NCBI GenBank assembly: GCA_965153455.1
Contig: OZ234493.1
Span: 13,878,213 to 13,942,212, forward strand
Length of the DNA stretch: 64,000 nucleotides
From: Sphagnum compactum
Taxonomy: Eukaryota
Direction: 5' to 3'
Notes under the pieces: generated by a model
Databases searched by the model: none
What the model saw: the letters and a program-made list of their open reading frames with translations, nothing else
Told to the model about the DNA's origin: nothing
Shown here: in pieces, positions 8,801 through 62,023 of the stretch
How the letters are laid out: each line of letters opens with the position of its first letter
Position numbering within the stretch: the first letter of the stretch is position 1
Translations under genes and position numbers: made by a program

Positions 8801-9424
8801 GGAGTCATTGAAACTGTTGCAAACTCATATCTCTCTTTGAAAAAACCAATCAACTCAAAAAAGAAGAAAAGAAACTTTGCTTTTGAAGAGTGGAAGGGTA
8901 AAGAAAAGAGAGAAACCTATAGGGTTAGCTGCAATTATGCGAACACCAACAGCTTTAACAGCTTCAATTAGTGCTGCTGCCTGGCCAGAAGACGGAAGTC
9001 GCTGGTGGGATACCACTAGCCGCAGCAGCTCCGCTGTCAGCTTCGCACTACTCTGAGAACCGACCACTTGCCTGATCTCGTTCATCAATCCCCCGCAAAC
9101 TCTTTTCCATCAGCCAATAGACAAAGATTCTTTCTTTGTAATCTAATCCGGCTCCCATGACAAAAAAGGATCCAAAACCTATCAGGGAAAGAGAAATGGA
9201 AAAAGAAAGCACACGTCCTTCTCTGCGAGCCAAATCCTCAACACAAGACAATGCCTCCCAGGGAAGCTCAAGAAGTGCCGATGGATTGCACAAAACTGAT
9301 TTGAAATAAACGAAAGGATTTTCAAAACTATTGCCAAAAAACGGAGAGATATTATACACCTGCGCCGGATCTTAGTAACGAATTGGTCCACGGCGGCCTC
9401 ATAGCCAGACGTAGTGCCCACCAT
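5871..9424 (-). CDS. EIF2B2: Translation initiation factor eIF2B subunit beta, 9 exons, about 410 aa
   Basis: Exons with GT-AG boundaries and consistent phases: 9424-9360, 9071-8917, 8778-8491, 8106-7977 (alternative in-frame acceptor at 8136), 7512-7408, 6998-6896, 6656-6531, 6245-6058, 5943-5871. Motifs [90 protein letters not shown]. ATG in GCCATGG context at 9424. Confidence 0.95.
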
Positions 9425-9426
9425 GG

Positions 9427-9460
9427 CTCCTCCTCCTCCTCCTCCTCCTCCTCCTCCTCC
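9427..9460. repeat. (CCT/GGA)n microsatellite immediately 5' of the eIF2B beta ATG
   Basis: About 11 CCT units are directly visible. They explain the poly-Gly and poly-Pro ORFs in the track. Confidence 0.9.
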
Positions 9461-9681
9461 TGCTGACACTGACTACAGCTTCACGGAACCCTTTGAAAGC
9501 CGGCTGGTTCCTCAAGTCCGATTCCACAAGAACCTCCAAATTCTACCGCTACTTACCTCGGATGTACAAGAGCGAGAATCTTCTTCCACAATGCCAGAGC
9601 TCCAAACTTCTGTGGAACCAGAGCTTCGCGGGACGCACAGAACACGAGCTTCGAGCTTCGCACTTCGCGCGGGTTGCGATG

Positions 9682-13030: not shown

Positions 13031-15546
13031 GGGTCTGGCTAACGCAACACACCTCGATGATAGAAAAACACACCTTCTAACCCAAATAGGCATTTCCCAT
13101 GCATTTCCCATGCAGCAGTAATGGATACGCCGCAGCAAAAATATGACGGTTAATAAAGCAAACTTAAATCTCAACAGCAAGTAGTGTTCACACTGGTATG
13201 GCGACCTGTTTTCGTGTTACACCAGCACTTCTACAGTTTCGCATGCAAGGCCTTCTTTCTCTCCAATTACACCTTTAGGATCGCCCCAAATGTCATCACA
13301 TACACAGCAGGCACAGGCGCAGCAGGCACAGGCACAGGCAGAGCTGATACAACAGCAACAGCAGGATGACGACTTGTTTGTTCCCGGTATAGGCGAGCCT
13401 GACGACCTGCTTGAGCGGATTGAACCCCCTTCAGAGGCTCCAATATGGCCTTCTCTTGCAACAGCTATGGCAGATCTGAACGCTTTCACAGGTCCTAATG
13501 GATGGGCACTTACTTCATTTCGCACAGAGAAGAAGAAAGATGAGGTTGTCAGGGTGTTTCTGCACTGTGACCGAGGTGGTACATACAGATGTCGTGTCAA
13601 TGAGGATTGCCGCCGCTATGGGACCACCACTCGCCAAGTTGGATGCCCATTTGACACAGTCCTTCGCCACTTCGTTGCTTTTGGTGGTTGGAAGCTGCGG
13701 ATCTGCAACGCTGATCATAATCATGGTCCAGCACCCCCGATCACGCATCCTTCGCTGTAGAGAGCAGCTATGAAGGAGCACAATGACGAGATCAGAGTAG
13801 AGGCTCATACGGGGTTGCAGAGTACGAAGATCATGAGGAGGCTAAGGGAACAGGACCCAGACATACCCATCCTTACCCGTAATATCCTCAACGATCGCCA
13901 ACATCAACGGATCGAGTTTCTGGCAAGTCGTACGCCGATCCAAGCGCTGCTATATACCCTTCAGGATGACGGGGATTGGGTATATCAGTACCAAACAGAC
14001 GACAACGACAAAGTGACCGCCTTATTCTTCAGTCACCGCCAATGCCTGGAGCTTCTTTGTTCGAATCCCTTCTTTTTGGTCATGGATTGTACTTACAAGA
14101 CAAACAAGTACAAAATGCCACTGCTTCAGATCATTGGTTCAACAGCTCTAGGATCCATGTTCTTCGTTGCTTTCTGTTTCTTGTCCTCCGAGACTACGGA
14201 GTCATATGGATTCGCCTTGCGCTGCCTCAAATCAATGTACCAGAGCATTGATTTGCAACCAGAGACCATGCTCAAGAGCGTAATCACTGACAAAGATGAC
14301 GCCCTCAACACAGCAATCCTCGCTCATCTACCTTTCGTGTACCACTTTCTCTGCATCTGGCATATCAATATGAATGTCATGAAGAAGTGCAAACCTATCT
14401 TCCGCCAGCAGTTCGACAACGAGCTCAGAGACGAAGAGATAGGCGACAATCAATACAAGGCAGGTGTGGATGAGCGCTGGAAGGCCTTTCTGCAGTTCTG
14501 GAACGCTGTGATAAGCACAACGACTGAGGATGCTTTCGTCCCCGCATGGATAGCTCTGCAAGGGGCATATCCAGAGCCTGAATTCGCCGCGGCAATTGCC
14601 TATCTTGAGAATGAGTGGCTTCGCCATAAGGAGAAATTCGTCCACGCTTGGACAGATCATCATCTCCACTTTGGCCATAGAGCCACCTCAAAGGCAGAAG
14701 GGGCTCATGCGTTGATCAAACGAGAGCTGATGGTGAGTACTAATGACGTTGTCACTGTTGTCAATGCCCTAGTACGCACCTTGAAGGATCAACATGCAGC
14801 TAGAAAAGGCAGCGCTTGAGCGTGTGAAGGTGAATTTGCCAATCAAGCTTCTGATCCCGTTGTTCAGAGACGTCGTGGGGAAGGTGGCACCTCAAGCACT
14901 ACACCGTATGCTGGATATCCGAGATAAACAGCTTTCTACAGGTGTTGCTACTGCTCTTCCTCCCTGTACGAATACGATGAAGGACTCTATGGGCTTACCA
15001 TGCGTACATGTCATCGATACGTACCTTCGTGCCAACGCTGGTTCTCTGCAGGTCACCGACTTCCACCTTCAATGGCACCTTCAACCAATTGCCACCCTTC
15101 CTCCACTTGACCCACGCCTACAGATACGAGAACTCGACGTTATCCAGCCTCGAGGTAGGCCCACTGGTGCTACCGCACGCCGCGCTCGCACTACTCGTCG
15201 TGAACCTTCTAGATTCGAAAATGAAGAGGCAAGCAGCCAGCAAACTCGTGTAAATAGACGCAGAGAACTGAGGGAACAGCGCCAGCAGGCAGTTGACGGG
15301 GTGGACAGTACACAGGGAAGCGATGCGGGTAGCAGCAGTCAGCGTGGAGGCCGTGGTCGTGGCCGAGGTGATAATACAACGATTGATACTGTTGTGGAGG
15401 GGATGCTTACATAATAGCAGCTTGGAGGTTCAACATTAGGCTATGGGAATTCGTGGATGTGGGAATCCATGGTACTGCTTACCTAGGCAGATCGGGTTAA
15501 GAGGTGTGTTTTTCTATCATCGAAGTGTGTTGCATTAGCCAGACCC
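13031..15546 (+). mobile_element. Mutator-like (MULE) DNA transposon, 2516 bp, 53-bp TIRs, 8-bp TSD TTGTTAAA
   Basis: Left TIR 13031-13083 (GGGTCTGGCTAACGCAACACACC...) and right TIR 15494-15546 match at 49/53 positions. TTGTTAAA occurs at 13023-13030 and 15547-15554. Encodes a MULE transposase. Confidence 0.95.
13290..15414 (+). pseudogene. Intronless MULE transposase (about 707 aa reconstructed) with one in-frame stop and one frameshift
   Basis: ORFs 13290-13760 and 13770-14819 share a frame and are separated only by TAG 13758-13760. An extra A near 14804 shifts into ORF 14794-15414. FAR1/WRKY-like N-domain (CDRGG..GCPF..HNH), catalytic motifs MDCTYKTN, VITDKD, LCIWH and SKAEGAH, a C-terminal C..MGLPCVH motif and an RGRP AT-hook-like motif. 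Confidence 0.9.
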
Positions 15547-17960: not shown

Positions 17961-19429
17961 TATTCACTCAAATTGTAACTTGTTTCATTGAATTTGGAGA
18001 CAACTTGATTAGTGATTCAAGCAGCCCAAGTGTTGCATGTGATGAATGCAAAGGTGTGTAGCTATTCAATGCCACTAAACTTGAATCAACCATGACCTCA
18101 ACATCGTTGTTAGCATTATGAGTACTAAATAAAGCTTTCATATGAAAGTTCAGGAACAACTTCAATGGCCCCCATCACAAAGTACTGCCTTTGGCAAACA
18201 TTCAACCAAAAATAAATAAATTCACTAGCTCAATAAGAACTTTCCTTTTCATGGGGTTAGTCGTCTCCTACTTTCCTTTCTAGTTTTTCCCCACCTAGGA
18301 ACCTCTTCAAGAATCAACTAGTAATGTATGAAAACAAATGAACCTTCTTTCGAATGTTTTGCTTTGAAAAGCTTTAGAACTTCTTGAAATGGGTTGAAGA
18401 CCTTAAGTGGGAGGCTTGAGAAGGAGGGATGTCCTTAGGAGAAGCTCGACATTTGGTGCAAACTTTTGTCTTGAAATCTTCTGGATTCAAGTTCACATGT
18501 TGGGGCTCTTCTCAGGAATCCAGTACATGGCTCACAAATGTAGCCCCATATGAACCACTAATGAATTTCCCCCAGAAAATCCAAAATACATCAATTTCTA
18601 TTTTTCTATTATTATTATTATTAGTATTATTATATTGGGGATGAAATTATGATCCAGTTAGGGGTTTGTTGTTGAAATGTTTGCTCATAAGTGGATGAGA
18701 TCCAAATGTTACCCTAAACCCTAAAACACACATTTAACACTCTCTTACTGCACTTCTTCTACTGCTAAGGTTGAATTGAACAACATCAATGTTCAAATAT
18801 TTGACAAATGTCTCTTCTTCATTGATTTCATCCTCACCTATTATTTTACCAATCATCCCAAAGCCTTTGTTGGAATGAAATTCTCAAGTCGGGAAATGAT
18901 TTTCATCCCTAATGATTTTTTTGTTCAATAGTTTTTTTTCCAATTTATTTTAACAACCCATGAAACTTAGATATGACATTTTATTAATCTAATGTGTACC
19001 TATTCTCCTACTTGAATTCTATAGTTTGAATTGAACCACAAAAAAATTAAAATAATTGAAGCTTCCAAGACCAAAGAAAAAAAGGATTTTCAAGGTATAT
19101 TTATATTGCAAGTTCTTTGCCAATGTTATTCCTTTGATATTGAACTTCCTTTTTTTGCGAGTTTTAAAAAAATTAAATTTGGGACCAGAATCCAAACCTT
19201 TAAAAGGTGTATGCCTCATGTTGAAAATTTTACAAAGAATATGAAAAAGGGGGTTTTTTAATTTAAATGGTTCAATTTTTGGGATATAAAAATTTGGGGA
19301 AGCTTTCTAAAAAAAAATGCAAAATTAGTCTAATTTACACTAGCCTAGAAAAACAAAAATTTCCCCAATTTGAACGGCGCTGAAGTATGTCTGTGTCTAC
19401 ATTGTAATGTCTACGGTGTATGTATTTCT

Positions 19430-20193
19430 CTATCTTCGTCTTCGAGTATGGCGGCGTCTCCTACGGTGATGTCGCCTACGACGCACGCGACGCCGGCGAT
19501 GTCTTGGTCTTCTTGACTGCCGACGCCGTTTGCGTCGATGTGATCTGCGGCGATGTCGTCTTCTTCCTCCATGCGACCGAACAGACCTTCGCCGGCGTCC
19601 TCTGTTGCAATCACAATCAATGCCCACAACCCCATGTTAGAGACCTGCATTGCATTATAAGTCTTTTTACAACGGTACAGCTTCGAAATCCCCACTAATT
19701 TTGTCTAGGCATTCAACAAGTTTACTGCTGCTAGATTCGAGACTTCTGAGAGATCGAGAGATCAAGCTGCTGGAACATAATCAGGAACATGATCAGAACT
19801 ACAGGAACTTGAGTTTCTAAATCTAGAGTTATTAGTCTTCTTTGTATATGTAGTCATGGTTAATGCAAAATTATGTTATTGCAGAATCCCCCACCCGGCT
19901 CATGAGTCATGCAGAGATTAGAGAGCTTACAGTCTCGTTTCACAAAGCATGTATCTGTGGGTGGCGTCTTTGTCAAGTTTGCCTGCCCTCATGAGCCTTC
20001 GAAGAGCTCTGCCTAGATGCTTTCTGGAATCTGCGGGTAGAACGTGACCCCACTCTCCTTGAATGCTCTTCATGATCGATGCGAATTTGGATCCTCGAGG
20101 GTGATTCATGTCGTTGAGCGCCGTGGTAACCATCTTCGAGTAGTGAGGATGCAGCCGCTTCGACGCTTTGGACTTCCTTCTGCTGGACCCCAT
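19430..20193 (-). CDS. Linker histone H1-derived protamine-like sperm nuclear basic protein (H15 globular domain + Arg/His tail), 2 exons, 144 aa
   Basis: Exon 1 (20193-19931) encodes an H15-like winged helix (HPHYSKMVTTALNDMNHPRGSKFASIMKSI..LRRLMRAGKL..YML) and ends CT|GTAAGC. Intron 19930-19602 has a CTAAC branch-like site and a CAG acceptor. Exon 2 (19601-19430) continues in frame as a 56-aa tail with 36 Arg and 7 His, ending in TAG. Confidence 0.85.
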
Positions 20194-21232
20194 ATTGTTA
20201 CAATATTGGATACACTCAAATCAATTTTCTCTGATTAATTTTCCGTCAAAATTTTATGCGCTAAAACAAAGAGATCAGAAGGAGGTCGTGATCAATTCCC
20301 TCCTCCCCCCCAACCCACCCTCCCACCCAATTGCTGCAAAGACATCAGGACTCTTCAGGAGTTTCCGAGGAGCTTGAAACTCAGGAGATCATAAAAGAAA
20401 TTGGGATCATACAACAAGATCTGTGAAGAGTAAATTTGAATCTTTTTGCTTATGAAATAAGCTAAGACCCCAAGCGCAACTATGCAACTTGGCATCCCAT
20501 AGGCTTGATGGGTCCTCACACGGATCCTTAGTGCATGACTAGAGCTGCAGGCGCTAGTCTTATAGCTAGACGAGGCCGAGTAAATGCCTTTTCACAGTCT
20601 GAAATTACATGATCTCATGATCCTGGGATTCTCAAGGATACCAGCTGCAGATCAGTCTCGCATCCTTTACCGAAAAGTTGCGGAATTGTTACACGAGGAG
20701 ACATGTGCCTCATCGTATCTCGCTGCAGTACCCTCAGTAGTACCTGCAGCTCGTGCAATATTATTTATTTGTGATCACGTCCGCCGCTTGCTTCATCTCA
20801 TTCACCTCACACGGATCACAATGACAAGCTCAATGTGATCATGACATTAGGTTTTCTCTTCTTGTTCTTCTTGTTCTTCTTCGTCCTCCTCCTCTTCTTC
20901 TTCGCAGCAACTAGTGTGAACTTCAGAGCTTCTGCAAGCGCTCAAAGCTCTCTTGGCAGCAGCGGCAGCAGCAGCTAGTGTGAACCCGTTCTTTTCCCAC
21001 TCATTTCTCTCTCTACCTACCAGCGTTGGACTAGTATTGGTTTTGTTAATAACCGCCGGTTCCATTTTTCCCCCTTTTGAATATTTCAAAATCAGAGAAC
21101 CGCCAGTGTGATCCTAAATGTGATTGTGGTCGAGATATTTAATAAAAATATCTTAAATATAATTTTAAAAATTGTAATTAATTTATAATTAATATGATGT
21201 TCTAAATTGATTTTGATTTAATTTTGAACTAA

Positions 21233-24742: not shown

Positions 24743-24780
24743 GCTGACTCGATTGGTTTCCGTAGAAGGAAGGTCATACA

Positions 24781-26842
24781 ATGATGGCTGGATTAGAACT
24801 AGAACATCCACCAACAGGAAGACGTCTTGAGAGTTTGCAAGAGAAAGATGGACTTTTTATAGCTCTATTGCTTACCCTTTTGGCTCTTGTTGTGCACTTT
24901 GTCTTTTATAGAAGATTTCGGCACTTGCCTCCAGGACCATGGCCATGGCCTGTAGTTGGCAATTTGTTTCTATTGGGTAAATCTCCACATCAAGCGTTTG
25001 CACACTTGGCAAAGAAGTATGGGCCTCTCGTGTACCTTCGGCTGGGCTCTCGACACACAGTTATAGTGTCTTCTCCTGCGATGGCGAAGGAATTTCTCTT
25101 GACACATGATCATGTGTTTCAATATCGTCGACCCAGCACAATCACTGCGATTTTGAACAATGGTAAAAATATTGCACAATCAAGTGGTCCCTTGTGGCGG
25201 CAGTTGCGTAAGATTTGCATGACTGGGTTATTTTCTACCAAATGCATACATTCATTCCAAGCTGTGAGAATTAAAGAGATTAGGTCCACAATGAAAGACA
25301 TCAAAATTAAAGCGCAAGAGGGCAAGGTAGTGGACCTCGACTTTCAGCTGTCATTGCTTGCTACCAACATCATGACTGAAATGGCTTTCGGGAAGAGGTA
25401 AAAGAATTTCTTCCAAGTTACAACCCTCCTAGTATGGTCATTCAACAACTCTTGAATGCAAATTGTGGAGGTTACATGATGTTGGAAAACAGTTAGACCA
25501 ATTTTGGAGGGTACTCAAAGAAACCTTACAATTGTGATCAACATGATGTACCATAATCCTCTTCTCATGACTTTCTTTGCTATGTATAAGTGTTGCCACC
25601 ACTTTGTAGGGCTTGCAATGCATGATGCCTTTCTTCTTTGGCACCATCTTTGAAGTCATGCTTTACAATTTGATCATGCTTTGGTAAATTGATTAGGTAC
25701 TTTGGAGCAGATGAAAAAGGTGAGAAGGAAGCTCGTCATCTCAAACAAATTGTTGGTGATATCTTTGGTGCATTTGCCACTGTAATTATTGGTGACTATG
25801 TGCCTTCCTTGTGGTGGGTGAGCAAACTTCAGGGAGTTGAAGCTCCCTTGTATGACTTACGCAAAAGGATGAACCAAGTTGCTCAAGGAATACTTGATGA
25901 GCATAGACGGGACAATGCAACAACTGATCATCAAGATTCAACATACAATGATAAACCTAAAGACTTCATTGATGTGCTACTTTCTGAGCGTTTGGATGAT
26001 GGGTCTGGGAAACTTTCCGATGACACAATTCAGGCTGTTCTCTATGTATGGGAAACAATTTCTGCATTTCATCCACCCAAAGTTAATCATGAACAATGAG
26101 CTTTAAAAACTTGTTGTATGTTTTGTAGTTGATATCTTTTTCTTATAGCCATCCTAGCTAATAATTTAATCTAACATGATATAGTTATCTTCATACATGT
26201 GATGTGTTTTTGCAGGATCTATTGGCAGCTGGTACAGACACCACATCAGTCACCTTACAATGGGCAATGGCAGAGCTCATACGAAATCCAAAGCTTATGA
26301 AGCATGCTCAGGATGAGTTGGATACGGTTGTTGGAACTGATCGTGTGGTTGAGGAATCAGATCTCCAACACCTTCCTTATCTCCAAGCTATAATAAAAGA
26401 AACATTTCGTTTCCATCCTGCTGCTCCTTTCACACTTCCTCACATGTCACTGGAGTCTTGTCAAGTTGCAGGTTACTATCTGCCACCTAAGACTCGTGTG
26501 ATGGTGAACCTGTGGGCAATGGGCCGCAACCCTGATGTTTGGGAGAGACCCTTAGAATTTGACCCTGAGCGTTTCTTGGAACATCCTGAGATTGAGTGGA
26601 ATGGACGTAGCTTTGAACTCTTGCCATTTAGTAGTGGAAGGCGGGCCTGTCCAGGACAACCATTAGCAGAATTAGTAATTCAACTTGCCTTAGCACACCT
26701 GGTCCATAGCTTCAATTGGTCTCTTCCCAATCAACAAGAACCTCACACTCTTGACATGTCTGACAAATTTGGCCTAACTCTTCCAAGAGCACAACCATTA
26801 CATGCTATGGCACATCCTAGGTTGCCTACGCACCTCTACTAG
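24781..26842 (+). CDS. Cytochrome P450, A-type/CYP71 clan, 3 exons, 530 aa
   Basis: Exons 24781-25397, 25697-26045 and 26216-26842 (1593 nt, phases consistent). N-terminal TM helix, LPPGPWPWP hinge, AGTDTT I-helix, ETFR, PERF and heme motif FSSGRRACPG. Confidence 0.95.
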
Positions 26843-28060: not shown

Positions 28061-29599
28061 ATCTGGCAGTGAAATGGAATCGAGAGAAACCTTGCCTGTA
28101 GGGCATTAGATCATTACCTTCATGATAGGTAGGTATGTAGCCAGAGTGGTCCGTTGGACAATCGTATCAGTCGATATGCAGATATGTGTAGTGGTCTGCC
28201 CCTGCAATATCCTTCACAAGCCAATGCTGATGACCTCTCAACATATGTTTAACATACTAGCATACAGTAAGTTGAGAAAAAGAAAAGACTTAGATGCTTC
28301 CAATCCATTCAAAATACACTTCTAATTGGTGCAAACCAGCTGAACTTCTGCAATTTCATGAATAAACAAGCTTATGATATAATTGAAGGTGAAATTTAAT
28401 CCTGACTTCAACTACAAACTGTAACTTTCATGCCCCCCCTTCCCACCACTTCTGAACTTCCTCGGATTCAAGTCAGTCAGGGATACCCTGGTTAGACCAT
28501 TATAGCATATCAATTGGGACATAAAAGAGCTCTAGTGCAATAGAGGGGAGGACGATGAACCAGACCAGATTTGTGAAGTTCTGAGCTAGGCTTGATGATT
28601 TGCAGCTCCTTGCTTCCAGTTGCATCTGTCCATATTAAGAGCAGAAGAGAGCATACTGTGATGCAAAAAGCCCCTGAATGACCTCCTTTGTACCTTTACA
28701 TCGCCTCAACATCTTCAAGACATGGTATAGATGCATAAACAGTACAGATGCCGACCTTGAAGAATTTGTACAAGTAATTTATTGCAGGAACTGAAGAACA
28801 CAAGATAGAGATGAACCTCTATGACCTGACATGGGAGCCTGGAAACTAGCGAATTAGTGACTGGTATTGACAATAAGCAAGCTTGGATACACTTTGTTGA
28901 ATGCTATGGTATTAGATTACTATATGGAACAAGGTACAACCATGACAGCAAACCAGGGGCTTACTGTGTCTGGATTACTCTTCACCAAGTGTAATTATTT
29001 GTACATTGTACGAAGAATATCTAGGCCGACAAAGTTGCATCTCGATAGTCAGGCTGCTTCAAAGTTGATGATCTAAGATGGTCTTGGATTTCTAACTTAG
29101 GTCTCTGGTTTACAATTTGAGCTTCGAGTTCTCTGTAGATTGCAACCTCTGAACGTGGAAAAATATCCCAGGAAGACACCATCAGTATGCTCTGGTTTCA
29201 TTGACTGTACACAGACAAACTCTCCATGCTTGGCTTGATTGACTGGCTAAAGCAAAACCTTGCTAAGAAGGTGATGCTTCACATGATGTTACCTTGATGC
29301 TGGAGCCTCAACACCACAACCAGTCCTGGATCACCAAAATTTTGTTCTAAATGCCATGCAATAAGGATGCAAACAGCAGGGCATTTCTGTGACATAATTA
29401 GTATATGATATCTATATGCACATCTGAAAGTTTCCTGCACAACAGAAAAATCAAGATAGAATATTTTAGGCCAACAATCATTTTCTCAGGTTCTGCACTC
29501 AATCCAACATTTGCAAGTTTAAGCCGGTTGACATATTCTTCTAGATATTCTAGATAAATCTGCTAGAACTTCATCTAGGATAGAGATTGCAGACTTAGA

Positions 29600-30262
29600 G
29601 ATGCTTCAAATGTACCTATCTTGTTATTGCGGACTATCAAAAATTGGCAGTTGAGGTGCAGCTTCAACGTCAGTTGAGGTACTTCACTACCTGGAGTATT
29701 GTTGGTCACTATGAGTGGGTCTTCAGCTGTACACAGATTGGCAATATGCAGTACTTTTAGCATGCTTATCTTCCATGGCCCATTGGAGACAGTGGCATCA
29801 AGTGTCTCTTGGGCTGCTCCCTGCTTGATCATCTGCCGCACCCATCCAACCAGATTACCTCCATCAATGTCCTTGAAGTCCACTCCTGTTGGCTCCCTGC
29901 CAGTGAGCAGTTCTAGGAGTATCACACCATAGCTGTACACGTCTCCACAAGTGGTGGATCGCCAACTTTGTCCATATTCAGGAGGAATGTACCCAAATGT
30001 ACCTGCAATATCAGTGCTCATGACATGGGTCTCATATGCACTTATGAGTCGTGCAAGACCAAAGTCTGCTACTCGGGGTTCAAAATCAGCATCCGGCAAA
30101 ATGTTACTGGTCTTCACATCCCTGTTGCAGGAGGATGTGGGGGTATGAAACCATGGTGAAGGAAGTTGAGACCTCTTGCAGACCCCATGGCAATCTTGAA
30201 TCGTTTGCTCCAATCCAGAACCTCAACTGCATCTGCACGGTTCCCAAGCCACAGGTCAAAGG
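29600..30262 (-). pseudogene. EMS1: Truncated, frameshifted EMS1/EXS-type LRR receptor kinase fragment (kinase C-lobe only)
   Basis: FDLWLGNRADAVEVLDWSKRFKIAMGSARGLNFLHHGFIP, then a frameshift at about 30140, then RDVKTSNILPDADFEPRVADFGLARLISAYETHVMSTDIAGTFGYIPPEYGQSWRSTT.GDVYSYGVILLELLTG..GGNLVGWVRQMIK. The 5' end abuts dispersed repeat B. Confidence 0.85.
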
Positions 30263-47920: not shown

Positions 47921-50900
47921 TTCATTCAAGCCCTTAACCTTCTAATCCTAATTATCAATTTATTAAGGTTCGCCCTAATTCATGGATGATGAACATAGGT
48001 CCCATATGTAATTATAACAAACAATTTATAGTGGAAACAATGTTATAATTACAACCATTTTGGTTTAATTAATGCATATTTTACTAAATTTTGTTTACCT
48101 AATTTATTTATGGAATAGACATTATAATACATCTTTCCATATAATTATTATAAATATGTACTATTGGATTATGGTTTAGGTTTAAGGTTGGAACACATAA
48201 ATTAGTTAGCAAGTTTTTTACAAATTTATAATAATTAACTTAAATTAGGCTAAATTGGGGGGTGGGGGGGGGGATTTTAGGGTTTTAATATGTGTGAAAT
48301 AATACAATTTCATTCTATATCTTTTACAAAGAGAGTGCAAAAAAAATAGTTTGGAGAGATCACGCAAAGGGTAAAAAACATTTTTTTTTTTTGTTCTTTT
48401 ACAAAATTTATTTTACTGTTTTTGAAGATTAAAGGTTTTTTCAATGAATAAAGTTTTAAAATTTTGTTTCTAAATTTTTTCCTATTTTTTTAATAAAAAA
48501 TTTGCATTATATAATTTGTATAATTTGTATAGTTTTTTGGGTTTAGGGCAAATTTCACTAGGATCATTTTTTGTTAGGGTTTGATAGTTAAGGTTGTAAT
48601 ATGGTTATGGCAAAATATCATTTGGATTTTTAGGGTTATGCCTTATGGTTTTATGTTTACGAATTTGGTTCATATATTTCAAGGCTTAAAGTTTATACTC
48701 TAGACATTGCTCATTGTATTGGTTTTTTATTTTATCACCTGTTTAGATCTATAACATAATTATGAATCTCCTTTATTTTTATACGTTCCATAGTTGTTAA
48801 AGTTCAATATTTCGTAACCCACTTTTGTTTAAATGTAATACCCATATCATATTGTGATAATTCATTAACCATGAAACATAGAAATATTTTAAAAATACTT
48901 GATCCCCCTCCAATACATCATGAAATTCATGTTTTCAAATTTATTTATTCACCTTACAGTATGATTTAACATACATAAAAATGAACACAATACAAAATTG
49001 GCCACATTGATGATACAAGGGGTTAGGGTTTAATGTAAAATTTACTACTTAATGTTCAAATTATGGTTTAGGTTTAAACTTTAGGACATATAAATTAATT
49101 AAAAAAAAATTACGAATCTTAATTAATTAAAATAAATCTAGGGTGCATTTTGGGCGAAATTTTTAGGGCTTAAACATATGTAAAACAATGCAATGTCATT
49201 TTATATTTTTTTAACGAAAGTGAAAGAACTGAACTTGGAAATTGATATACATTTTTTTGTGTTTCTTTAAATGCAATACCCCCATGTCAGGTCGTTTCAA
49301 AATAACCAATATGTAGTTTGGGTGACCTTTCCATGAAAACCAAAGCTTATATGCAATATTTGCATGCAAATTCATTTTGAAATAATCCATAGGTGATTTA
49401 TTTAGACAACCTTAGGTGAATAATCAACCTAAAATGCAATATCCAAATGTAAAGTCACTTGAAAATAAGTGGTTTGGGTACCCAATATATGTTTTTTTTA
49501 ATATTTAAATTAATTTTATAACAATTAATTATCTTGAATAATTATAAAAAATAATGATTTGAATAACATATCACCATAAAAAATGTCATAAAAATAATAA
49601 ATTAAATATCAAATTATTATTTTGATTTTTAAATCTAAATTTTAATTATCTGAACAATTAAGGTTCAACCAAATCATCAATTAATTTACATTTACAAATA
49701 TATGGTTGTTTAAATATGGTAATCAGTCATTTACATTATTTAAAATATTTTTTTATTAATTCCTTAATTATGACATTATTTGTTGATAGTTAAATTAGAT
49801 TATTATGTCATATGAGTCCCACAAATATTATAATGGAAACCTGTATGTAAATAATGCAAAAGGTGTTAAAAATCAATAATTATTTATGGACCTACATGCG
49901 GGTATTGCGATGGATGTAAAAAAACCAACAACCTCAAATATAATGTAACAGCTTCCCAACATGCTGATGAACAATATAACTTACAATTTACAACTCACAC
50001 CTTACACCCTAAAAAAGTTGATACCCATACCATGGCATCAATGCTCATAAATAGTTGTGTATGAATATAGATCATGGTACCTAAAATGTTGTTACCAGTC
50101 AAATATGATATGAATCGAAATATCCAATTTTCACATACCATGGCAATATGGTTTCAACCGCAGTACAATGAGCAAACCATACCCATCTAGTCAGATATTT
50201 TCATACTCATATTGATACCCAGGTTCATATATGAATACAACCTATATAACTAGTCCAACATTGGTCAAAACCCAAAGTTGATTGAACAAAAAAAACTATA
50301 GGTGGTAATTGGTGTTATTAGGACCTATTCCCGAGCCTATTCCCGATCAAAAATGGTGTTGTTTTGTATTATGAAAATAGCCCATTCCACCCAAGAACAC
50401 ATCTAACCAAGTTTGTTTTTCTTAGGTTGTAACAAGTTCTATTAGAACCTGTTTCCAACGTGTAATAGATACTATAGGAAGGATTCATCCATTCTACCTT
50501 GGAACACATCAAGTCAGGTCATTCTATTAAATGGCATTGATTAATGTTTTCAAGTTAGGGTCTGTTCCAATTTGTAATTTGTACTTTGGTGTTGTTTTAG
50601 AGTTGATTCACATCACAAGCAGAATGGTGAAACCAAAAGTGAAACCGATAATCAACGGTTATAGAATTTTTTTAAAAAACCCCTTCAAAAGTATTGGAGT
50701 AAGACACCAAAACCAATTACATACTATGGAACAAGCCCATTCCATGACCTTAGGAAGGTGACGAGCTTAGTATGGCAACTGAAATTCCATTTCCAAATAA
50801 AATCATTAGGAAATTATTATGTGGTGATAAATTTAATTATATATCTAAACAAGATGCAAGAATTAGATTTTTTTGAAATGCCCATTTATTGTCTTAGATG

Positions 50901-53900
50901 AAATATTATGGGTTATAAGGTGCCCTCCATCAACACTAGAAAAAATCCAACCACATGTCTCTTTATGTTATATTGGTAGTTGGTTATTTATCAATCATCC
51001 ATAAAGCATTTTTTTTTGTTTTGAAACACATGAATTAGAGAAGAAATTTTTTAATTTGGCACCTTTCTGTTATTATTCCACATGCTCAAACATTTGCACA
51101 ACATTATATACCATAGCACCCAAATGGATTTGACATTAATTTAATTAATTTTTTTAATTGTTAAAATGTCTTCAATTTTTTTGAATTTTTTAAAAACTTG
51201 AAAAATTTCAAGTATCCATTGTTGAAAGTTCATAAACCTAATGGGGCCACCACAATCCTTCTTTGATAGGTAGGTATGAGTTGTAATGCCTCTTCTACAT
51301 GCATGAGGAGGTGGGACGAAGAGCTTTTTCTCACACCAACTTGTCCTATTCTTGCACATTGTAATTAAACATTCTTACCTCAACATAGAAACAACCTGCA
51401 TCACCATGGCCGGAGTAGTATTTCCAAATTCATGGAGTTGGAGTGTAAATTTCAAAAGTAAAAAGAGGATAAAGAAAATTTTTCCCTTAGACAAAATAGA
51501 TGTTTATTGTTTTGAACAATTCTTGTTTTGCAACTAAGATGGAGGAGTGTGAGAGAATCATTCAAAGAAGCAACATTTCAAATTTTGCACACTCTTATTA
51601 TGACACTGCAACATGATGACAATATTGCAAACATTCAACACAATTCAAGAATTATCTCATCATTTGACGAGCAACCATAAATCCTCATTTTTTCCCCTTG
51701 GCTTTAAGGATCATACAAAAGAACCTTAAGGGAGCACAAGCTTTGAAGTAGTTCCAACAATGTTGTCATTGAATACATTTTGTTTTGGTTTCATCAACAA
51801 AGTTCTTTCTTAATGCAATTGCTCCATTTTCTGACTTTGGATTGTTTGAAGAAAGTTTCTTGAAAAAGATTTATATTTTGTCAAGTTGAATCATCATTTG
51901 AGGGCATTTGAAAGCAAGCATAGTTGTGCAACCTTTGGTAAGGCTTTAGCAAATTTGACAACCACACATTGTGAAATAATGTGTTTTCTAGTGCTTATCT
52001 AATATCCTTTTTCTCCATGTTTTCAAGTCTTGCAATTTATGTTTCATTGGTATAATGTTGAAGTCTTGGTAACATGTATAACTATTCTCTTAACTACTTG
52101 TGCAATCCAAGTTGAAAAGGGTCAAAACAAAACCCTTAAATCCAAAATCCTAAGCACAAAACCTACACTTTTATTTAATGTTGCATTAGATTTGTTATTG
52201 GGGGAAAAGTTAGGTTTGACCATGAGCTGAAAAGAAGAAAGATGGTGATGTGATGTGACAAGATTGTCCCTTGCAAACAATGAAGAGAAAATCCAAAACC
52301 ACAATGCTAAAATGAAAGGCAAATCTTTGGTATATTCTTTTATTCATGTTTTTTTTTCTATTCACAAAACTTGTGATGTTTTGAATATTGTTATATAGGA
52401 CCTCACATAGTGATTAATGTTTTTATGCTCAAAATTGCACAATGATTTTAAATATAATCTTATGTTTCTAGTTTTTAGAATGGGGTGATTGCAAGCTAGA
52501 GGGTCTATAAAATCGTGTACAAGGGCAACTATTTTCGCACCCCTTCAAGTTCAAATGCTTAGATAATAAATTTGTGCACACATATATTCAATTTCAATAC
52601 AATAAACAACTCTAGATATTAAACGAGAATATATATATATATATATGATTAAATACAATCTTTGGGGGACTTTTTTGTCTATAAACTAGAAGTGAAACTA
52701 TCTTGCAAAATTATGCATATGGATTCACTAAATTAAAAAAGTCCTCAATGAACAACATTTATATTTTTCTCAAAATTCAATGACATGTTGATGAACCATA
52801 GATGGAAGTTTCCATGCCATTTTGTATCATGAAATGTATTTTAATGGACTTTTGAAAGTCGCAAAATGCACCAATTATTTCCATTTTAAAATGAAAATGA
52901 AACCTTTATTATTATTATTTTCATGAAAAATGATTATATACATAAGTAAAATAGTGACCTAGGTCAATTTTTAAATATCAGATGTGGTTTAGGCATGGAT
53001 AACAATGTCACATTTGTTGCAATCAAAATACACTATGAAAATGTATTTTTATGGAAACCTCAAATGTCATTTTTGGTCCATTATAGCTTGTAGTTACTCA
53101 ATGGTGCAATTCAATTCACATTTAATGCCCTAGAAATTCACTCTTCAACATGAGGTTGGTTTTCAACATTTGTCTTTTGTACTTGTAGTCGAACTACAAA
53201 TTAATCATCATTAAAGATGAAATTTCAAGGTGCAATGCCCAATTTGATGTAAGAATTATGAAATTCAGATATGAAGAAAACACTATTAAAATTCACAATT
53301 TATTTGACCAGGAAAATCAATAGAAAAGAACCCATTTTAAACAACCACCAAAAAGTTCATCCAATCATTTTGGACGCGTCATTTTGTACACATCTAGCAT
53401 GACCAAGATGGTTTATTTGACTAGGCCTAAGGTGGTGTTTTTGACTAGTCATTTTGACCAGTGACTATTTGACTACTAGTCAAATTGAACATTATTAGCC
53501 CATTTAAAGTGAACGTTAATCAACAAAATGTGTTGATTGGTCAATGGGCAATCAACATTTGAAATGTTGGGATCAAAGTTTGAACCTTGTTCTCCTAAAT
53601 GGGACACCCTAAACTTTGCCATCCAACTACCACTTTTGACCTATTGCTTATGAAGCCAAATACTAAAGTTAATGGACATTGTATCAATTTGTGCTAAAAA
53701 TCATCAACTTTGAAATGTGATTTCTTTTTTATATTTTGCTCAAATGAAACAAATGAATTTTCAAATTTGGAATTTTTCATAAATGTACACATTTGTAATA
53801 AATGGAAACCAAAAATTTCAAATCATTTTGATTAAAAAATGTTTGAATGTTATTGTTTAGTAACAAGTCAAACAGAAAATTTTCATCCCATACTTTGGAC

Positions 53901-55339
53901 ATGTAACTATATATACGTAAATATGTATTTTTATAATAAAATTTGGACTACTATTTTTAATCAAAAATAAATAAATTTTATGACTTAATTTTTTCAAAGC
54001 TCAATCACTTTATATTAATTCTTCGTAGAATACTTATAAATTTCTTCAATAACATGTCATTAATATTACAAAATTGCACCATGTTACATCCCAACATGTA
54101 TTATATTTATTGAACAATATATATATAATCGTATGAATACATGTTGAAATGTATGTATATAACAAGTTTCATAATAATAATAATAATAACTCATAATAAC
54201 TACAAAAATTAACTTTAATTATCTATTTCAATCAATTTTTAATATTTCAATATTATGTCAATTCAATTATAGAGAAATTTTGTGTTTGAATATTTCAATA
54301 ATATTACAATATATTTAGAAAGTTACAAAAAATTATTGTCATTCAATACATTCAAATGTTTTTGTGGTTTAATAATTTCAACTTTTTATATAATTCCACA
54401 AATTATTAGACCTAAATATCTTTTCAAATAATAATATAATTGCTAAAATCATAAATAAGTTTTTAAACAAAAATTGTAATTAAAAAATTTCACAAAAATT
54501 TTATATAATTAATTTCAAGACGATAATGTAACTAAATCATTATAAAAATAATTATAAGTACATAATTTGAAATATATATATAATTAAATAATTACATAAA
54601 TTTAATGTAATTGAATTACAAACTACAATATTTCATAAAATAATCAAATAATTACAGTAATTTTTTATGAATAAATAATTTTCGAAATAAGAAAATATCA
54701 AATAATAGTTTTTGTTTTTGAAAAAATTGATTCAATATCTACAATAAAATATTATAAAATATTATAAAATAATTTCAGAAAAATTACTATAATGAAAGAA
54801 AATTTCTAAACTTATGTAATTAAGTACATTAAAAAACTATTGTAACTAATACTTTCAAAAAACATCAATTAATAAATAACATGATAATTATAATTAATTC
54901 TAATAATAAATTCTAATTCTAAAAACCTTAACATCACATCAATTGAAGATTTTGAAAACTAATATTTATAACATTTTTCCAAATAAAAATGTAAACAACA
55001 AATTGATTAAATAAACTTTGGTTTACATAATAATGTAATATGTCATATTGTTACTAATTGACATAATATGTAGGTTATAATAAATAATTTTATAGATGAA
55101 AGATCTTAAATATCAACTAATAACTAATTATTAAAAGATCAAGATTGAAATTTTACTTTTAATAATATCGAAACAAATATTAAAAATAATATGTTTTAGT
55201 ATGTACCAAAATAAACATTAAAAATGTTTGTTTGAACCAAATTTGGTATTAAACCAAAATGATGAAACATACATTATTAACATTGTATATGTTTAATTTA
55301 CCCAACACAAGACTTACGGCACCTAGTTAGTATACACAA

Positions 55340-55560
55340 TATTTATCCATTTTGCCGAGGCCAAGTGCCATTTTGACCAATGAGACCCCTAGGGTACTTA
55401 CATAATATACGTATCCCTTGTCACCTTTGATTAAGCCAAATGCCATTTTGACCAACAAAACCCATAGGGTACATAAGTAGTATAGGTACCCCTCGTCACT
55501 TTTGACTAAATCAAATGTCATTTCGACTGGGATATTCATTTTTAAGTACATTTTGACTAA
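55340..55560 (+). repeat. Degenerate tandem repeat with a period of about 75 bp
   Basis: CCAAGTGCCATTTTGACC, CCAAATGCCATTTTGACC and TCAAATGTCATTTCGAC at 55361, 55436 and 55511. Confidence 0.65.
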
Positions 55561-58500
55561 ATGTTCAATTTGACACCTGGTTGAATAGGTCATCTTGGTC
55601 AAATTGCTTAATCAAAAACTACACATGTCATTTAACACTTGAGCTTCCAATCAAAATGGATATGTTTAAAGGTCAAAAAGGATCATTTAGTCAAGTTGTA
55701 TGGTTTGATAATCCATGAATTCTAATAATGAAAAGAAAAAACATTCAAGTTGTTATGGCTAATCCATTTTGGAGATTCCACAAATTACTTTCAAGGGTTG
55801 AATTTTTAATGATATGGAATAATTGGTATCTCATCAATAAAAGTAAATTGTTTGTGAGCTAGGTACAAGTATGGATTTAACAAAGAATTCTAATGTTTGA
55901 AAAAATAAAGAACATAAGTAAAACCCAATGAAAAGTGTTCCACTTATGATGTGATGTCAATGAAGGTGTAAAGCCACCAATTATGAGTTTAAAAATATTG
56001 TCTAGTTGTGTTGGACGTATGAACTAAAAGATTGATAAGAAATAAGAATCAAGATTTGTGAAAACATGTAAACAAAATCAAGGAACAACAATTGATGAAA
56101 ATCAAAATGGATGAAAAAGTGTGCATGTGCATTCATTCATGTTGAAAATATAAATAATATTTTAGTCTGTGCTGAAAATATTGAAAAATCAACTATAATT
56201 TGCCAAAATGAATTTTTGAATTAATTAATTAATTGACATAATGTGTTGAATCTATTAACGTGTTATAATAGTCACTTGAAATCTTTTGACCTTAATTTGA
56301 ACTATTGTCACATGGTTCTTGTTTGTTTATTCAATAGGTTTAGGAATTTATCCCCATTTAATTCCCATTGACCTAAACATGAATATCTAATATAATAGTT
56401 CCAAAGCGATTTTTGGATTTAGTATTTTTCCAATGTTATGTTAAGGGAAACTCACATCAATTTTTGTGTAATTTTCAATTAGGTTTTGGTTAGCTCCCTA
56501 GTTAACAATATAATGACATGCATAATATATTTTGGATGGAGTATAACCATTTTATGGTGGAAAGTATCAATGACATTGATAAATGTGCACAAAATCCAAT
56601 TTGCTTTTAAAACACAAGTTGGGCAACTATAATGATTGGCCCACATGATTGCATTTAAATAAAAATTTGCTTTATATTTATCTATTTTTCAAATTGTGTG
56701 GTCACGAACGATTGCAAAACAATTAACACAATTAATTAGATGTGATAAATATTGTTAGAAACCCAAATAAGGGTTTTAATGGACAACCATTAAAAATGTG
56801 TAATGAATTAAATGTGGCATTGGGCTTGATGTAATTATAAGATAATATTCAATAGATAAAATATTTTTGAATTTTTGGGTTTTATTTTTATTTTATTTTA
56901 AGTGAAAAGATGATTTAAAATGTAATTATCTTTCTTGCACAATATTTTCAAAGAAAAAAATGATGTAATGGTTAAAATCCCCTCCCCCCTTTTCTCACAA
57001 AGGTCCAAGGTTTAATTATTTTCCCAAATTCTCCTTTTCTCCCACAAACAAAATGGGTGGGAAAAAATAGCCCTTGGGCAAATTCTTCAAGTTTGTTACC
57101 ATCAATGAACAACTTCCCCAAGGAAAAGTGGACAAAATGGCAATCTCAATCAAATTGCCCAAGGGAAAAAAAGGGACTTGGAATACTCAACCGAGAAGAA
57201 ATGGACTTGGAATTCCAACCAAATTCCTCAAGGAGTAATTTGGTTGAAGAGAAAGGGACTTTCCCAATGAGAAAAATGGATTACATCACAAACTTACTAA
57301 TCTTTCTAAGTTTGTATTAATTTTGTGCAAAATTCGATTTTCATAGGTTCGTACAAAAATCACATGAATTTCATGTTATGGTTAATATGAACCATATTTG
57401 TACATATTGAATATCTAATTATTCAAATGGATGAGACATTGTTTTTAAATGACATACGTGAATGTTCATGTTTAATACACAAAAATTACATAATTTTAAG
57501 GCAAAATTACTTCACAATAATTATAAGGGAGCAACTTCCTTGAAGAGAAGGGGACTTGACAATCCCAACCAAGTTACCCAAGGAACCATGTTTTGGACCC
57601 AAGTTCCCCATGGTTGGGGCTACCATGGTTCCCTTCTCCCCTAGGAACTTGCTTGAAGAAGTTGCCTAAGGGTTTTTATTTCATCCATTTCATCTATGGA
57701 AAAAAAGGAGAATTTGGGAAAAGAATCAAAGTTTAGACTTGTGTGTTGAAAGGGTGGAATTTTAACCACTACATCACATTTTTTTCCTTGAAAATATTGT
57801 GCAAGAAAGATACTTAAAAAGTTAATCATAGTTTTTGGGTATAGTAAAAAATATTTCAAAAATATTTTTCCTAGTATGCACTACCCTACAAACTATGTCA
57901 AGGTTAGTGCTACATTTAATTTGTTGCGTACCTATATTGCTTACTAGGGTAATAGGTGGAGCTACCTTTATGGGCTAAATGTGAAGAAATGCTTAAAGTG
58001 ATTCAAATTTAACTGCACCTTATACATATGTGCCAATATCTACCACATTTTTAAAATGTATAAAGTATTTCCCAACACTCCCCATAAACATAAAAATATT
58101 GGATAATGTAATGTAAAATGAAGATCACTTGAATTCCATCACATGGGTCAATCATTATGCCTAGTCAATTAACTATAATTATGTTATGTATTAGAATATA
58201 AGTCAAAGTTTCTTTTATTGCATTATTGGCATACTTGTCATCTACGATATGCTTTTGTTAGTGAGTAATTATACACACAAGAGTAAAAAATACATAGAAT
58301 GGTGCATGTACTCTATTGAATGAATAAAATGATACAAAAAGTTTGATATTATAGTGTTTAGGTGTAAGCACAAATAATTAATACTAATAACCTAACACTA
58401 ACAATGATATGACCAATAATTATTTAAATTAAATTTCAAACTAACTAGCCAATAATATAGCTAATATTAATTAAAAGCTACAAGTGATTAATATATAAGA

Positions 58501-59859
58501 GGATAAAAAAATACAAATATTCATTAACAATTTTGACTAAGTGTGACTCGAATTGTAGCTATTTTATTCTACCTTCATTGTATTATTTCATTAGATTACT
58601 TAAAGGAAGTAAACAATTATATTTTTCATTGAAAGGATTGTTAATTTGGTCTATCATTAGAAAAATTCTTGTCAATTTTAACCCTATGTTTGCAACTAGT
58701 GTGTGATTAGTGTTCAAATTAATTCATTTTGCAAATACACTTGTGGCAATCCTATGTCACTATAGTTGCAAGTGCTTGTAATTATGTATGCGACTACATG
58801 CTGATGAATCTAGATTTTAGTTGTACATGTGACTACAATTTGTCACTCATCGGGGCTAGGCTACGTAATTTGGACATGTGGCTCATGTGACTATTTATAA
58901 TATAACCACAAATGTAATTGCAAAGGTCAAGTTCTACATTGGCTACATGGGGACCAAGGTTCATGTGACACTTATGTTCATTCATGATAGTGAATAAGAA
59001 AATAGATTGTAATAACAAGGGTTTGCAATTGTTAGTGCAACTATGTGCCACCTGATTTTCTTGTGAATGATTGTTTTGATGACATTTGTGTTAGGTGACT
59101 AAAACATTTTGAAATCATAAATATCTATTACGACTCAAATCCAATCACTAATTGAGTGATTATTTTTTAAATTTCTTTTGGTGAAATCCTTCTTCAAATT
59201 ATATTATAAGAAACACACATGTTGTTTGCATCTATAATTCATTTTTCATTCTCATGAACTTGGAATTATTATTTTTCACCATGAGTTATTTCTAATTTAT
59301 AGGAACTTGTTGTAAAAGGCAAATAATCATATTTTTGCAAACTTTGGTTGTGAATTTTTAAATGCAAGATTCTTGAACACAAAGGTGATATTAATTAACT
59401 TCTATTCTAGTAAAAAAAGTTGCACATTTAAGCAAACTCTTCAACATGTTTATAGTTTGGATTTGACTACAATTTTTTTTCAATTTTTAATATTGGGATT
59501 TCTCGATTTCATGAAAATATTGAATTTTAAATTTTCAAATTTGAAATTCTAACAATGTTTTTGTATGAGACATGATAAATCTCTTTGATTGATAATTTTA
59601 TAAGACTTTTTATATATGTTGAGTCTCTATATACAAAATAAATTGGCTCCTCATGGAAGATTTTTTTTTTTTTTTTTTTGGGTTATTTTCTTATTAGCAT
59701 CTTACAAAATGTTAGGTCATAACCTTGAATTGACTTTGGAAATCATGTGATTGTAATTAGAATCGCTTTGTATGTTAGATTTCACAATTTAGAAAGTTGA
59801 AACTTGAAAGATGGTCAAATAAATGCAAATGATTGATTTTCTTTAAGTTTTTTGTCAAT

Positions 59860-62023
59860 TTAAAAAAAACTTGTCTTTTTCATGATCCTATAAAATTCTT
59901 CTTCATTGATTTCACCATCACCTGGTATTGCAATTTTCCAACCATCCAACCCAAACGCTTTTGCATGTCGGAATGTAATCTTCATTGTGAATTTTTTCTC
60001 ATCCCTAATTTTGGCCAATTGTTTTTAATAATAATTTCCAATCTTATATTCATGAAACTACTTTCATTAGAAATTTTATAGTTTGAATTGAATCTACAAA
60101 AAATTATATATCTACAATTGTAATTTAAAATGTTTTTGGGGTATATTTATATTACAAGTTTTTTACCAATTCAACCTTTGATATTTTTTGTGACTCTATT
60201 TTAAAATTGTGCAATAAGTCTAAACCTTAAATGTGTTTATAGTTTTATGGATTGAAAAACTACACCATCATGATCAGTTTCATCAATCATCTCTTGCAAT
60301 TCTTCATTAGTCATATTTTCACCAAGCTCTTCTGCAACTCGTTTAATATTTTGGAATGAAATCTTACCCTACAAAAAATGTGAAATGTGAAAAAAGAATG
60401 GAAATTTTGAATTGTAAAAATCAATTGAATAAAGTTTTTTTAGGGTTTATTGCTTGCATTTTATTTTATACATTATTTTTTTGGAAATTCAATTATTTAA
60501 ATTCATTCATTCATTCATTCACAAGGTTTATGTAAATAACCCACAGTTTCATCATCATCAAACAAACGAAATGTCTTCATGATTTCTTCCTTTGAATCCG
60601 GTTCACCCATCTTGGATGTCATTATGTGCAAAAACTCGTTAAAGTCGATTTTCCCACTACCATCCTTATCTATTTCAGCTATCATTTTCTTAATTTCCTA
60701 AATCCAAAAACTCAAAAATACAAATGTGAAGAGTTTTAACAATATTTGAAGATTAGGTTATGCAACGAATCCATGACAACTTTGACATATTTGAAACATG
60801 TGTGCATGGTATGTTTCATGATGAATTTAAGGCATTTCTCAAATTTTTCACTTATCAAGATCCTAAATTTTAATTAGGTTATTGGGTCAAATTAAAACAT
60901 TTGACATTACCTTGCAAAATGAAAAAGATGAGATCTCCCACGCAATATAAAGAACTTCAAAAATAAATTCAATCACAATGTTTCATGAGTTTAAAAGTTA
61001 AAGTTAATCACAACTTCTTTTACTAAACAAAAATGGGGTCATGTGTTTTGAATCAACTAACCTCTTTTTTTGGTTCAAATCCAAGAGCTCTGTAACATGT
61101 ACCCATATGTTTGTCAAATGTCAAAAATATATTGAACATATGTTGAATAGAACATATATTCTACCTATGGAATATATTTTATCTATGTTTAAATAATACA
61201 ACATCAACTTATGGTGTGGGATTTTCTATTCAACTATTTTAAAAAAAACATATATTGAATAGAAAATTCCACACCATAAATTGATATGGTATTATTAAAA
61301 CTTCCTAAACCAATTATGTGAATATGTGAGGTGTCATACCTCATTGCAATTCGAAGGTCATTACCATCAATTAATCCTACAAGAATTAAAGATGACACAA
61401 ATGACATTAGCATCAAATGACACGTCAAGATATAACAAAGAATCCAAATTTTAGTATCAAAAGTTGTGACAAGCTTCATCCCAAAGTCATGATTTTGGGT
61501 TGCAATTTGTTGGATTGCTTAATTAAAATTACCATGGAACTTCCAATTTCTAATGATCTTGCAATTTTTGACAAAATGTTTTGATTCAACATGTCACTAA
61601 ATTTGTTAAAAATTCCACTTCTTGTTAGACATTATTTTCATAGCTCAATATCATGATTTGTGAAATTTTTACTAATATTATAAATAGGACCAAAAGTTTA
61701 GTCCAATCTAATACCATTGCCATCCTTGTCAAAAAGATCAAAAGCTTCACGAATCTCTTGTTTTTGGTCTTCTTTTAAGCCTTGTGAACGAGCTTTGTTC
61801 TTGGCTTCTTTTTTTGAAGGCCCCGCTCCAAGGGAAGACTTCTATTGCCACACAAAAGATGCAAATTAAGAAAGCTAACATTAGACACAAAACTCAAAAA
61901 AAAATTTCACAAAATCCAATATCCATCTATAGGTCATTCACATAGAGTTACACAATGACCTATGTGAACACAACTTCAATAGTTTGCAAAAACACAATTG
62001 TAAAAATTCAAAGTGTTTACCAT
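59860..62023 (-). CDS. CETN: Centrin (caltractin), EF-hand protein, 7 coding exons, 170 aa
   Basis: Exons 62023-62021 (ATG only), 61841-61715, 61376-61340, 61089-61062, 60697-60545, 60368-60266 and 59921-59860 (513 nt, all GT-AG, phases consistent). Reads [103 protein letters not shown]. Confidence 0.93.

Follow-up and report, generated by a model that had tools for sequence, protein, structure and literature searches.

A mis-annotated linker-histone gene of Sphagnum compactum with an arginine-rich tail as a candidate for an H1-derived protamine-like protein

In those portions of the literature that were accessible, mosses are described as using protamines or protamine-like proteins for the condensation of sperm chromatin, a repeated origin of sperm nuclear basic proteins (SNBPs) from H1 is stated, and the sole plant protamine gene that is named is that of Marchantia. 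In a search of the openly accessible literature, no moss or Sphagnum protamine gene was found. The locus analysed here, at positions 19430-20193 of a 64-kb stretch of Sphagnum compactum DNA (hereafter the window), raises the question of whether such a gene is present in a moss and is concealed in public annotation as two unrelated short open reading frames (ORFs), as had been suggested in an initial annotation of the locus. The gene structure, the two parts of the predicted product, its relatives in Sphagnum and the available RNA contigs were examined, and the proposed role in sperm chromatin was weighed against four other readings of the same DNA.

Gene structure, globular domain and tail

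The gene is located on the minus strand and its coding sequence was assigned to two exons. The coding part of exon 1 (19931..20193) has a length of 263 nt, corresponding to 87 codons and the first two bases of a Leu codon interrupted by the intron. It is followed by a phase-2 intron of 329 nt (19602..19930), in which the donor is GTAAGC (19930-19925), the branch-site consensus CTAAC (19640-19636) and the acceptor CAG (19604-19602). The coding part of exon 2 (19433..19601) provides the last base of the Leu codon and 56 further codons and is closed by the stop codon TAG at 19430..19432, as read from the sequence. The ATG at 20193 has A at position -3 and G at position +4, and an in-frame stop is located upstream of it at 20221-20223. 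A 5′-leader of at least 37 nt (20194..20230) was delimited by a contig of the moss metatranscriptome run X4, which begins at 20230, and the minimal 3′-UTR (19381..19429) by a contig of run X1, whose RNA label is a guess and which is colinear with the window from 19593 to 19381.

The stretch between the branch site and the acceptor is T/G-rich and without any AG, the CAG being the first AG past the branch site. The intron phase keeps the H15 frame open into the Arg frame, and the splice 19931/19601, with its canonical signals, is the sole junction yielding the Arg frame. If the transcript is read unspliced, Leu is followed by an in-frame TAA inside the donor GTAAGC. Due to the fact that the Arg frame of exon 2 contains no ATG, the tail is expressible solely as a spliced downstream exon. 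The G+C content of exon 1 (0.52), intron (0.40), exon 2 (0.605) and flanks (0.28-0.43) fits an exon-intron-exon arrangement. On the scale of the window, the G+C content at the gene is 0.35-0.45 and the region from 48000 to 64000 is markedly AT-rich (0.22-0.33). The joined product is predicted to comprise 144 residues with a mass of 17.9 kDa and a pI of 12. The two-exon gene model, in which an H15 domain and an Arg tail form one protein, is considered likely.

Exon 1 encodes a basic N-terminal arm of 14 residues and, at residues 15-83 (19945..20151, minus strand), an H15 winged-helix domain recognised by Pfam, AlphaFold2 and Foldseek. The Pfam profile Linker_histone (PF00538) matched residues 15-75 with 35.2 bits and an E-value of 1.5e-8, the gathering cut-off of this profile being 22.4 bits, and the PDB sequence matches of exon 1 were H1.0 and H5 (E 0.012-0.05). 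The AlphaFold2 model, computed from an alignment of 8 sequences, reached a pLDDT of 78.5 and contains helices at residues 18-29, 37-48 and 56-69 as well as a beta hairpin at 73-83. In the Foldseek comparison the best 6 rows were all H1.0/H5 globular domains with target-normalised TM-scores of 0.56-0.83 (about 0.80 in four) and an rmsd of 1.7-2.5 Å; the E-values of merely ~2e-3 are normal for a domain this small. Judged by profile match and predicted fold, exon 1 is a bona fide linker-histone H15 domain.

The tail of 56 residues consists of 36 Arg, 7 His, 4 Ser, 3 Gly, 2 Val and one residue each of Lys, Gln, Pro and Thr, i.e. 64% Arg and 12% His, with no acidic residue, no Cys and no Ala. With this Arg content, and the pI of 12 of the whole product, it qualifies as an Arg-dominated segment of the protamine type. 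A long Lys/Ala/Pro-rich C-terminal tail as in H1 is absent, exon 2 encoding a single Lys, no Ala and a single Pro. The divergent H15 domain and the protamine-like tail had both been recognised in the initial annotation; the Pfam and fold comparisons agree with the former, a recount of the Arg and His residues gave the same numbers for the latter, and the coordinates and residue counts of both exons all proved correct when the sequence was read again.

All six Arg codons are used in the tail (AGA 9, CGC 8, CGA 6, CGG 5, CGT 5 and AGG 3), which points to selection on the amino acid and not to slippage of the DNA. Moreover, Tandem Repeats Finder reported nothing across 19430-19601, and a simple-repeat artefact as the source of the tail was ruled out by this result together with the diversity of the Arg codons. 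A true triplet microsatellite, in contrast to exon 2, is present in the window at 9417-9485 and reads as poly-R, -E, -G, -P, -S or -L according to frame and strand; apart from exon 2, it is the sole source of Arg-rich tblastn matches in the window.

The surroundings of the gene were inspected as well. About 4 kb downstream of its 3′-end lies a Mutator-like transposable element on the plus strand (13185-15414), whose ORFs encode MULE transposase and ZSWIM-type RNaseH-like domains. Two ORF pieces on the plus strand (24766-26842) correspond to the N- and C-terminal parts of PF00067 and probably represent a P450 gene with several exons, and an ORF on the minus strand (29575-30222) that contains part of a protein kinase domain is presumably a single exon of a kinase gene. 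None of these neighbours (MULE transposase, P450 and kinase) gave a functional hint for the gene. The motif AACSGYY, which we take to be a DUO1-type MYB site, was found 23 times in the window versus 19 times expected; there is no enrichment, and with a match count near expectation the motif gave no evidence as a regulatory clue in the promoter. The matches nearest to the gene are two AACCGCC sites, at 21051-21057 and 21098-21104, which are located 47 bp apart and ~0.9 kb upstream of the ATG.

Relatives in Sphagnum and public annotation

An exhaustive phmmer search with exon 1 against 1.84 billion representatives returned 11 proteins at E ≤ 0.001. After the cluster of the gene itself, the next two (P0009 and P0010, E ~1e-13, 40-42% identity) belong to a second Sphagnum gene, here named paralogue B. 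Its long models (P0009, P0020, P0022 and P0023) have lengths of 163-167 aa and are annotated in S. troendelagicum, S. jensenii, S. fallax and S. compactum; an example is S. fallax KAH8931771.1 (locus BDL97_19G038300; UniRef A0ABP0U4V3, 'H15 domain-containing protein'). The two genes are about 40-43% identical and have in common the MGSS start, the H15 domain (32 invariant columns), the junction residue and an adjoining basic tail. The tail of paralogue B is longer (66-70 aa), contains more His and Lys and has two Cys. Unlike the present gene, paralogue B is already represented by a single spliced model in four species, and no characterisation of it was found in the searchable literature.

Short copies of paralogue B with 97 aa (P0019, P0024 and P0032) end exactly at the homologous junction residue, which indicates an in-frame stop in the genome at this point, and therefore the long models must be spliced. 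As judged from the protein models, the intron of paralogue B would have the same position and phase 2, since only one placement of GT allows a Lys codon to be directly succeeded by a stop. Both genes, having drifted to 42% identity, retain a basic ORF downstream of this intron. When the codon interrupted by the intron is read on through the donor, a stop follows immediately in both paralogues (19925-19933 in the window), and retention of the intron in either of them would lead to a tail-less globular protein.

The nearest protein in the databases is an 89-aa 'unnamed protein product' of S. jensenii with 91% identity to exon 1, and its cluster also contains a model of S. balticum and metagenome calls. 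All members of this cluster stop at the residue preceding the donor TAA, from which it follows that they represent exon 1 read through. For exon 2, two wrong-frame ORFs were used as queries and 31 proteins were returned, 30 of which correspond to the acidic +1 frame of exon 2 (models of 74-79 aa). Among them are S. jensenii CAN5973443.1 and S. balticum CAM6010908.1, the accession numbers of which adjoin those of the respective 89-aa models, the underlying records being equal in length, and a further acidic-frame copy of S. jensenii bears the UniRef name 'Secreted protein'. The public records of two species thus contain an 89-aa H15 model and a separate acidic ORF in the wrong frame, in line with the two unrelated short ORFs of the initial annotation. 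The proposed in-frame joining of 19931 to 19601 is likewise supported by the canonical genomic signals, the fitting phase and the paralogue junction at the same residue.

A close relative of the locus (L001) was used for the comparison of the individual gene parts. It consists of two metagenome loci that are 99.9% alike and were counted as one, and over 1501 nt its identity to the window is 94.1%. No difference between L001 and the window exists at the donor, the branch site or the acceptor.

Proposed function and alternative readings

By analogy, a role of the gene product as a spermatid chromatin-condensing, H1-derived protamine-like protein is modestly favoured here, and male-specific expression may be inferred on the same grounds. 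This reading is based on the combination of an H1 globular domain with a tail of protamine composition, which is the architecture of protamine-like SNBPs, and on the bryophyte precedents. As cited in other publications, the protamines of Marchantia polymorpha derive from sperm-specific H1s, cleavage into protamines being reported for its male germ-specific H1s (Higo 2016; D'Ippolito 2019), and MpPRM is an Arg-rich protein of Marchantia sperm under the control of DUO1. As described there, MpPRM and the male H1s of Marchantia resemble the Sphagnum gene in being bryophyte and H1-related and in carrying an Arg-rich part for which a role in the compaction of sperm chromatin is presumed; in contrast to Marchantia, the tail of the Sphagnum gene is placed on a separate exon, and the likeness is drawn from published descriptions. 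No liverwort protein was returned by phmmer with exon 1 or by the profile search. A relative outside Sphagnum that combines H15 domain and Arg tail was found neither by phmmer (1.84 billion representatives, E ≤ 0.001; seven of the eight other matches inspected) nor among the longer proteins by the profile search.

Animal PL proteins and protamine precursors of molluscs, tunicates and spiders likewise combine an H1-type globular domain with an Arg-rich region, but have no detectable sequence kinship with the Sphagnum gene, and an independent origin of the two is likely. Canonical plant H1 resembles the Sphagnum protein in its H15 fold and in a basic N-terminal arm of short length, whereas its tail is long and of the Lys/Ala/Pro type, compared with 36 Arg and 1 Lys in the 56 aa found here; moreover, helix 3 of the Sphagnum domain is itself Arg-rich. 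Mammalian protamine 2 is His-rich and binds zinc. The occurrence of His among Arg is similar in the Sphagnum tail, in composition only; the latter is devoid of Cys, and no homology exists. The parallel to zinc-binding protamine 2 drawn in the initial annotation thus extends to the His content and no further.

In the proposed mechanism, the gene would be one of a small Sphagnum family of H1-derived protamine-like proteins with at least two old paralogues and would be expressed in spermatids. The globular domain would dock on nucleosomal or linker DNA in the manner of H1, and the Arg tail would neutralise phosphate charge far more than the Lys-rich tail of H1 does, leading to the extreme condensation of spermatozoid chromatin. 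By analogy with Marchantia, the tail may be freed by proteolysis, perhaps close to the exon junction as proposed in the initial annotation. An unspliced message would end at the donor TAA and would give rise to a tail-less globular protein of 88 residues.

The gene model may be correct and the protein nevertheless somatic, i.e. an H15 protein of general or stress chromatin, of the nucleolus or binding to RNA, with the Arg/His tail as a nucleolar-targeting or nucleic-acid-binding segment. Such a function, which we consider unlikely while still a serious contender, would be in line with the RNA contigs of exon 1 that come from field moss metatranscriptomes with no tissue given, and with the fact that plants have several H15 families with tails other than those of H1, for example the AT-hook cluster of the atlas, taken as a lead only. 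A tail with 64% Arg and no acidic residue, however, has the composition of protamines and not that of known somatic H15 proteins. The rate of change in exon 1 also speaks for a reproductive protein: versus L001, a Nei-Gojobori omega of 1.31 was calculated from few changes (9 non-synonymous and 2 synonymous). Fast evolution of this kind is typical of reproductive proteins, although an omega of ~1.3 also fits relaxed constraint. In a language-model look-up, again taken as a lead only, paralogue B adjoins animal clusters named 'protamine-like' and 'testis-specific H1'. The polyA run X11, which has the same species label, contained 0 reads of the gene among 11.9 million records, a weak point against somatic expression that counts as no test.

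Regarding the spliced structure on which the protamine-like reading depends, it was considered that the intron might be kept, the product being the tail-less globular protein of 88 residues and the Arg stretch untranslated 3′ sequence. We regard this as improbable. It is in agreement with the 89-aa models of S. jensenii and S. balticum and with part of the RNA data. The 320-nt contig of run X4 (20230-19914) covers the leader, the whole of exon 1 and 17 nt of the intron, from which it follows that at least one molecule in the RNA library was unspliced, or was DNA. A contig of 151 nt from run X3 is located within exon 1, and the contig of run X1 (213 nt, 19593-19381) extends from 8 nt inside the acceptor through exon 2 into the 3′ flank. 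Both exons are thus present in RNA libraries, but none of the three contigs (X1, X3 and X4) crosses the junction from 19931 to 19601. The interior of the intron, on the other hand, is covered by no RNA-library contig (X1, X3 and X4), which argues against its retention. So does paralogue B, where, with the domains 42% identical, an Arg/His ORF is found behind the same junction; in S. balticum it is annotated with 97 aa, the same pipelines shortening both genes there, in contrast to the spliced model present in four other species.

Additionally, exon 2 is the best-conserved part of the locus, with 97.1% identity to L001 and no gaps, as compared with 94.7% and one 3-nt indel in exon 1, 93.8% and indels of 1, 8 and 1 nt in the intron, and 90.0-93.6% with gaps in the flanks. 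The five exon-2 differences from L001 are distributed over the Arg frame as three synonymous and two conservative changes (H>Y and S>T), and the omega of exon 2, likewise based on few changes, is 0.27. In order to extend this comparison, exon-2 variants were inferred as the single-base changes behind the amino-acid differences in the 30 acidic-frame Sphagnum proteins, a set that is biased to copies without frameshift and in which about half of the variants are singletons and could be assembly errors. Of the resulting 30 variants, 16 are on third positions of the Arg frame (15 silent and one R>S), nine on second positions (three R>H and one each of R>K, R>Q, Q>R, G>V, H>L and T>I; five of the nine stay or become basic) and five on first or ambiguous positions. 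No indels or certain stops were among them, frameshifted copies being such as would escape retrieval. The excess of third over second positions (16 versus 9) has the direction expected for a translated Arg frame and is not significant (one-sided binomial p = 0.11).

A further reading takes the +1 frame of exon 2 as a gene of its own that encodes a small acidic protein, the 74-79-aa 'Secreted protein'. It would agree with the annotation of this protein in S. jensenii and S. balticum and with an ORF that is open in the 30 collected sequences. Any Arg-rich run of CGN and AGR codons is, however, automatically open and acidic in the +1 frame, no Pfam domain is on record for the model, and 30 distinct amino-acid variants across 55 codons in close relatives amount to no constraint; two of the five differences from L001 are synonymous in this frame and three are non-synonymous. 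Furthermore, P0042, P0046 and P0050 as well as the plus-strand ORF P0038, which is recorded on a contig equal in length to that of P0042, require the deletion of a single nucleotide, the G at 19614, located 12 nt upstream of the acceptor. Since this deletion is tolerated, the sequence upstream of 19602 is non-coding in every frame and the coding boundary lies at the proposed acceptor, whereas the hydrophobic N-terminus of the acidic model sits in the intron and is destroyed by the deletion in P0042, P0046 and P0050. An acidic-protein gene is for these reasons scarcely credible.

Similarly hard to believe is the use of an acceptor located 2 nt downstream (gAG, 19601-19600), by which the H15 domain would receive a 41-residue Lys/Ser/Thr/Pro/Ala tail of the ordinary H1 type. 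The corresponding frame has 41 open codons with a net charge of +9, contains three S/T-P motifs and lacks acidic residues. In a post hoc joint test its resemblance to H1 exceeded that of 99.8% of synonymous-codon shuffles (0.2% of 20,000 reach it), a result for which clusters of AGA codons produced by slippage could be responsible. Variation gives no sign of constraint on this third frame: all five differences from L001 are non-synonymous in it (A>E and V>D among them), and the variants accumulate at its would-be first codon position. The annotated tail of paralogue B, moreover, is in the Arg/His frame, and past the branch site the upstream CAG is the first AG encountered. GAG is the poorest type of 3′ splice acceptor, and the first AG past the branch site is favoured.

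The same frame is of relevance for a possible origin of the Arg tail of the protamine-like protein. The tail might have been born from a Lys/Ser/Thr/Pro tail of H1 by a shift of the 3′ splice site by 2 nt within the tandem CAG-AG at 19604-19600, and the in-frame stop at the donor, conserved in both paralogues, might allow intron retention to hold back a toxic Arg tail until late spermiogenesis. This scenario is a long shot. A frameshift route from H1 to protamine has reportedly been proposed for tunicates. If the scenario is true, the splice-site shift would amount to a plant version, arisen independently, of the tunicate-type frameshift from H1 to protamine, and the old H1 frame would still be visible as a stop-free shadow ORF of 41 codons with a charge of +9.

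Meaning for Sphagnum and other bryophytes

H1-derived protamine-like proteins as such are already known, and the Sphagnum gene is a mis-annotated candidate member in a new lineage. The public annotation can be corrected, as the gene is currently split into a short H15 protein and a spurious 'secreted protein'. Together with paralogue B, the locus provides concrete candidates for protamine-like genes of mosses, in the keystone peat-forming genus Sphagnum, and it opens a test of whether the transition from H1 to protamine in bryophytes was inherited or convergent. Moreover, owing to the tail on its own exon, the in-frame stop of the donor and the H1-like shadow frame, the gene offers a compact system for the change of a lysine-type linker histone into an arginine-type DNA condenser.
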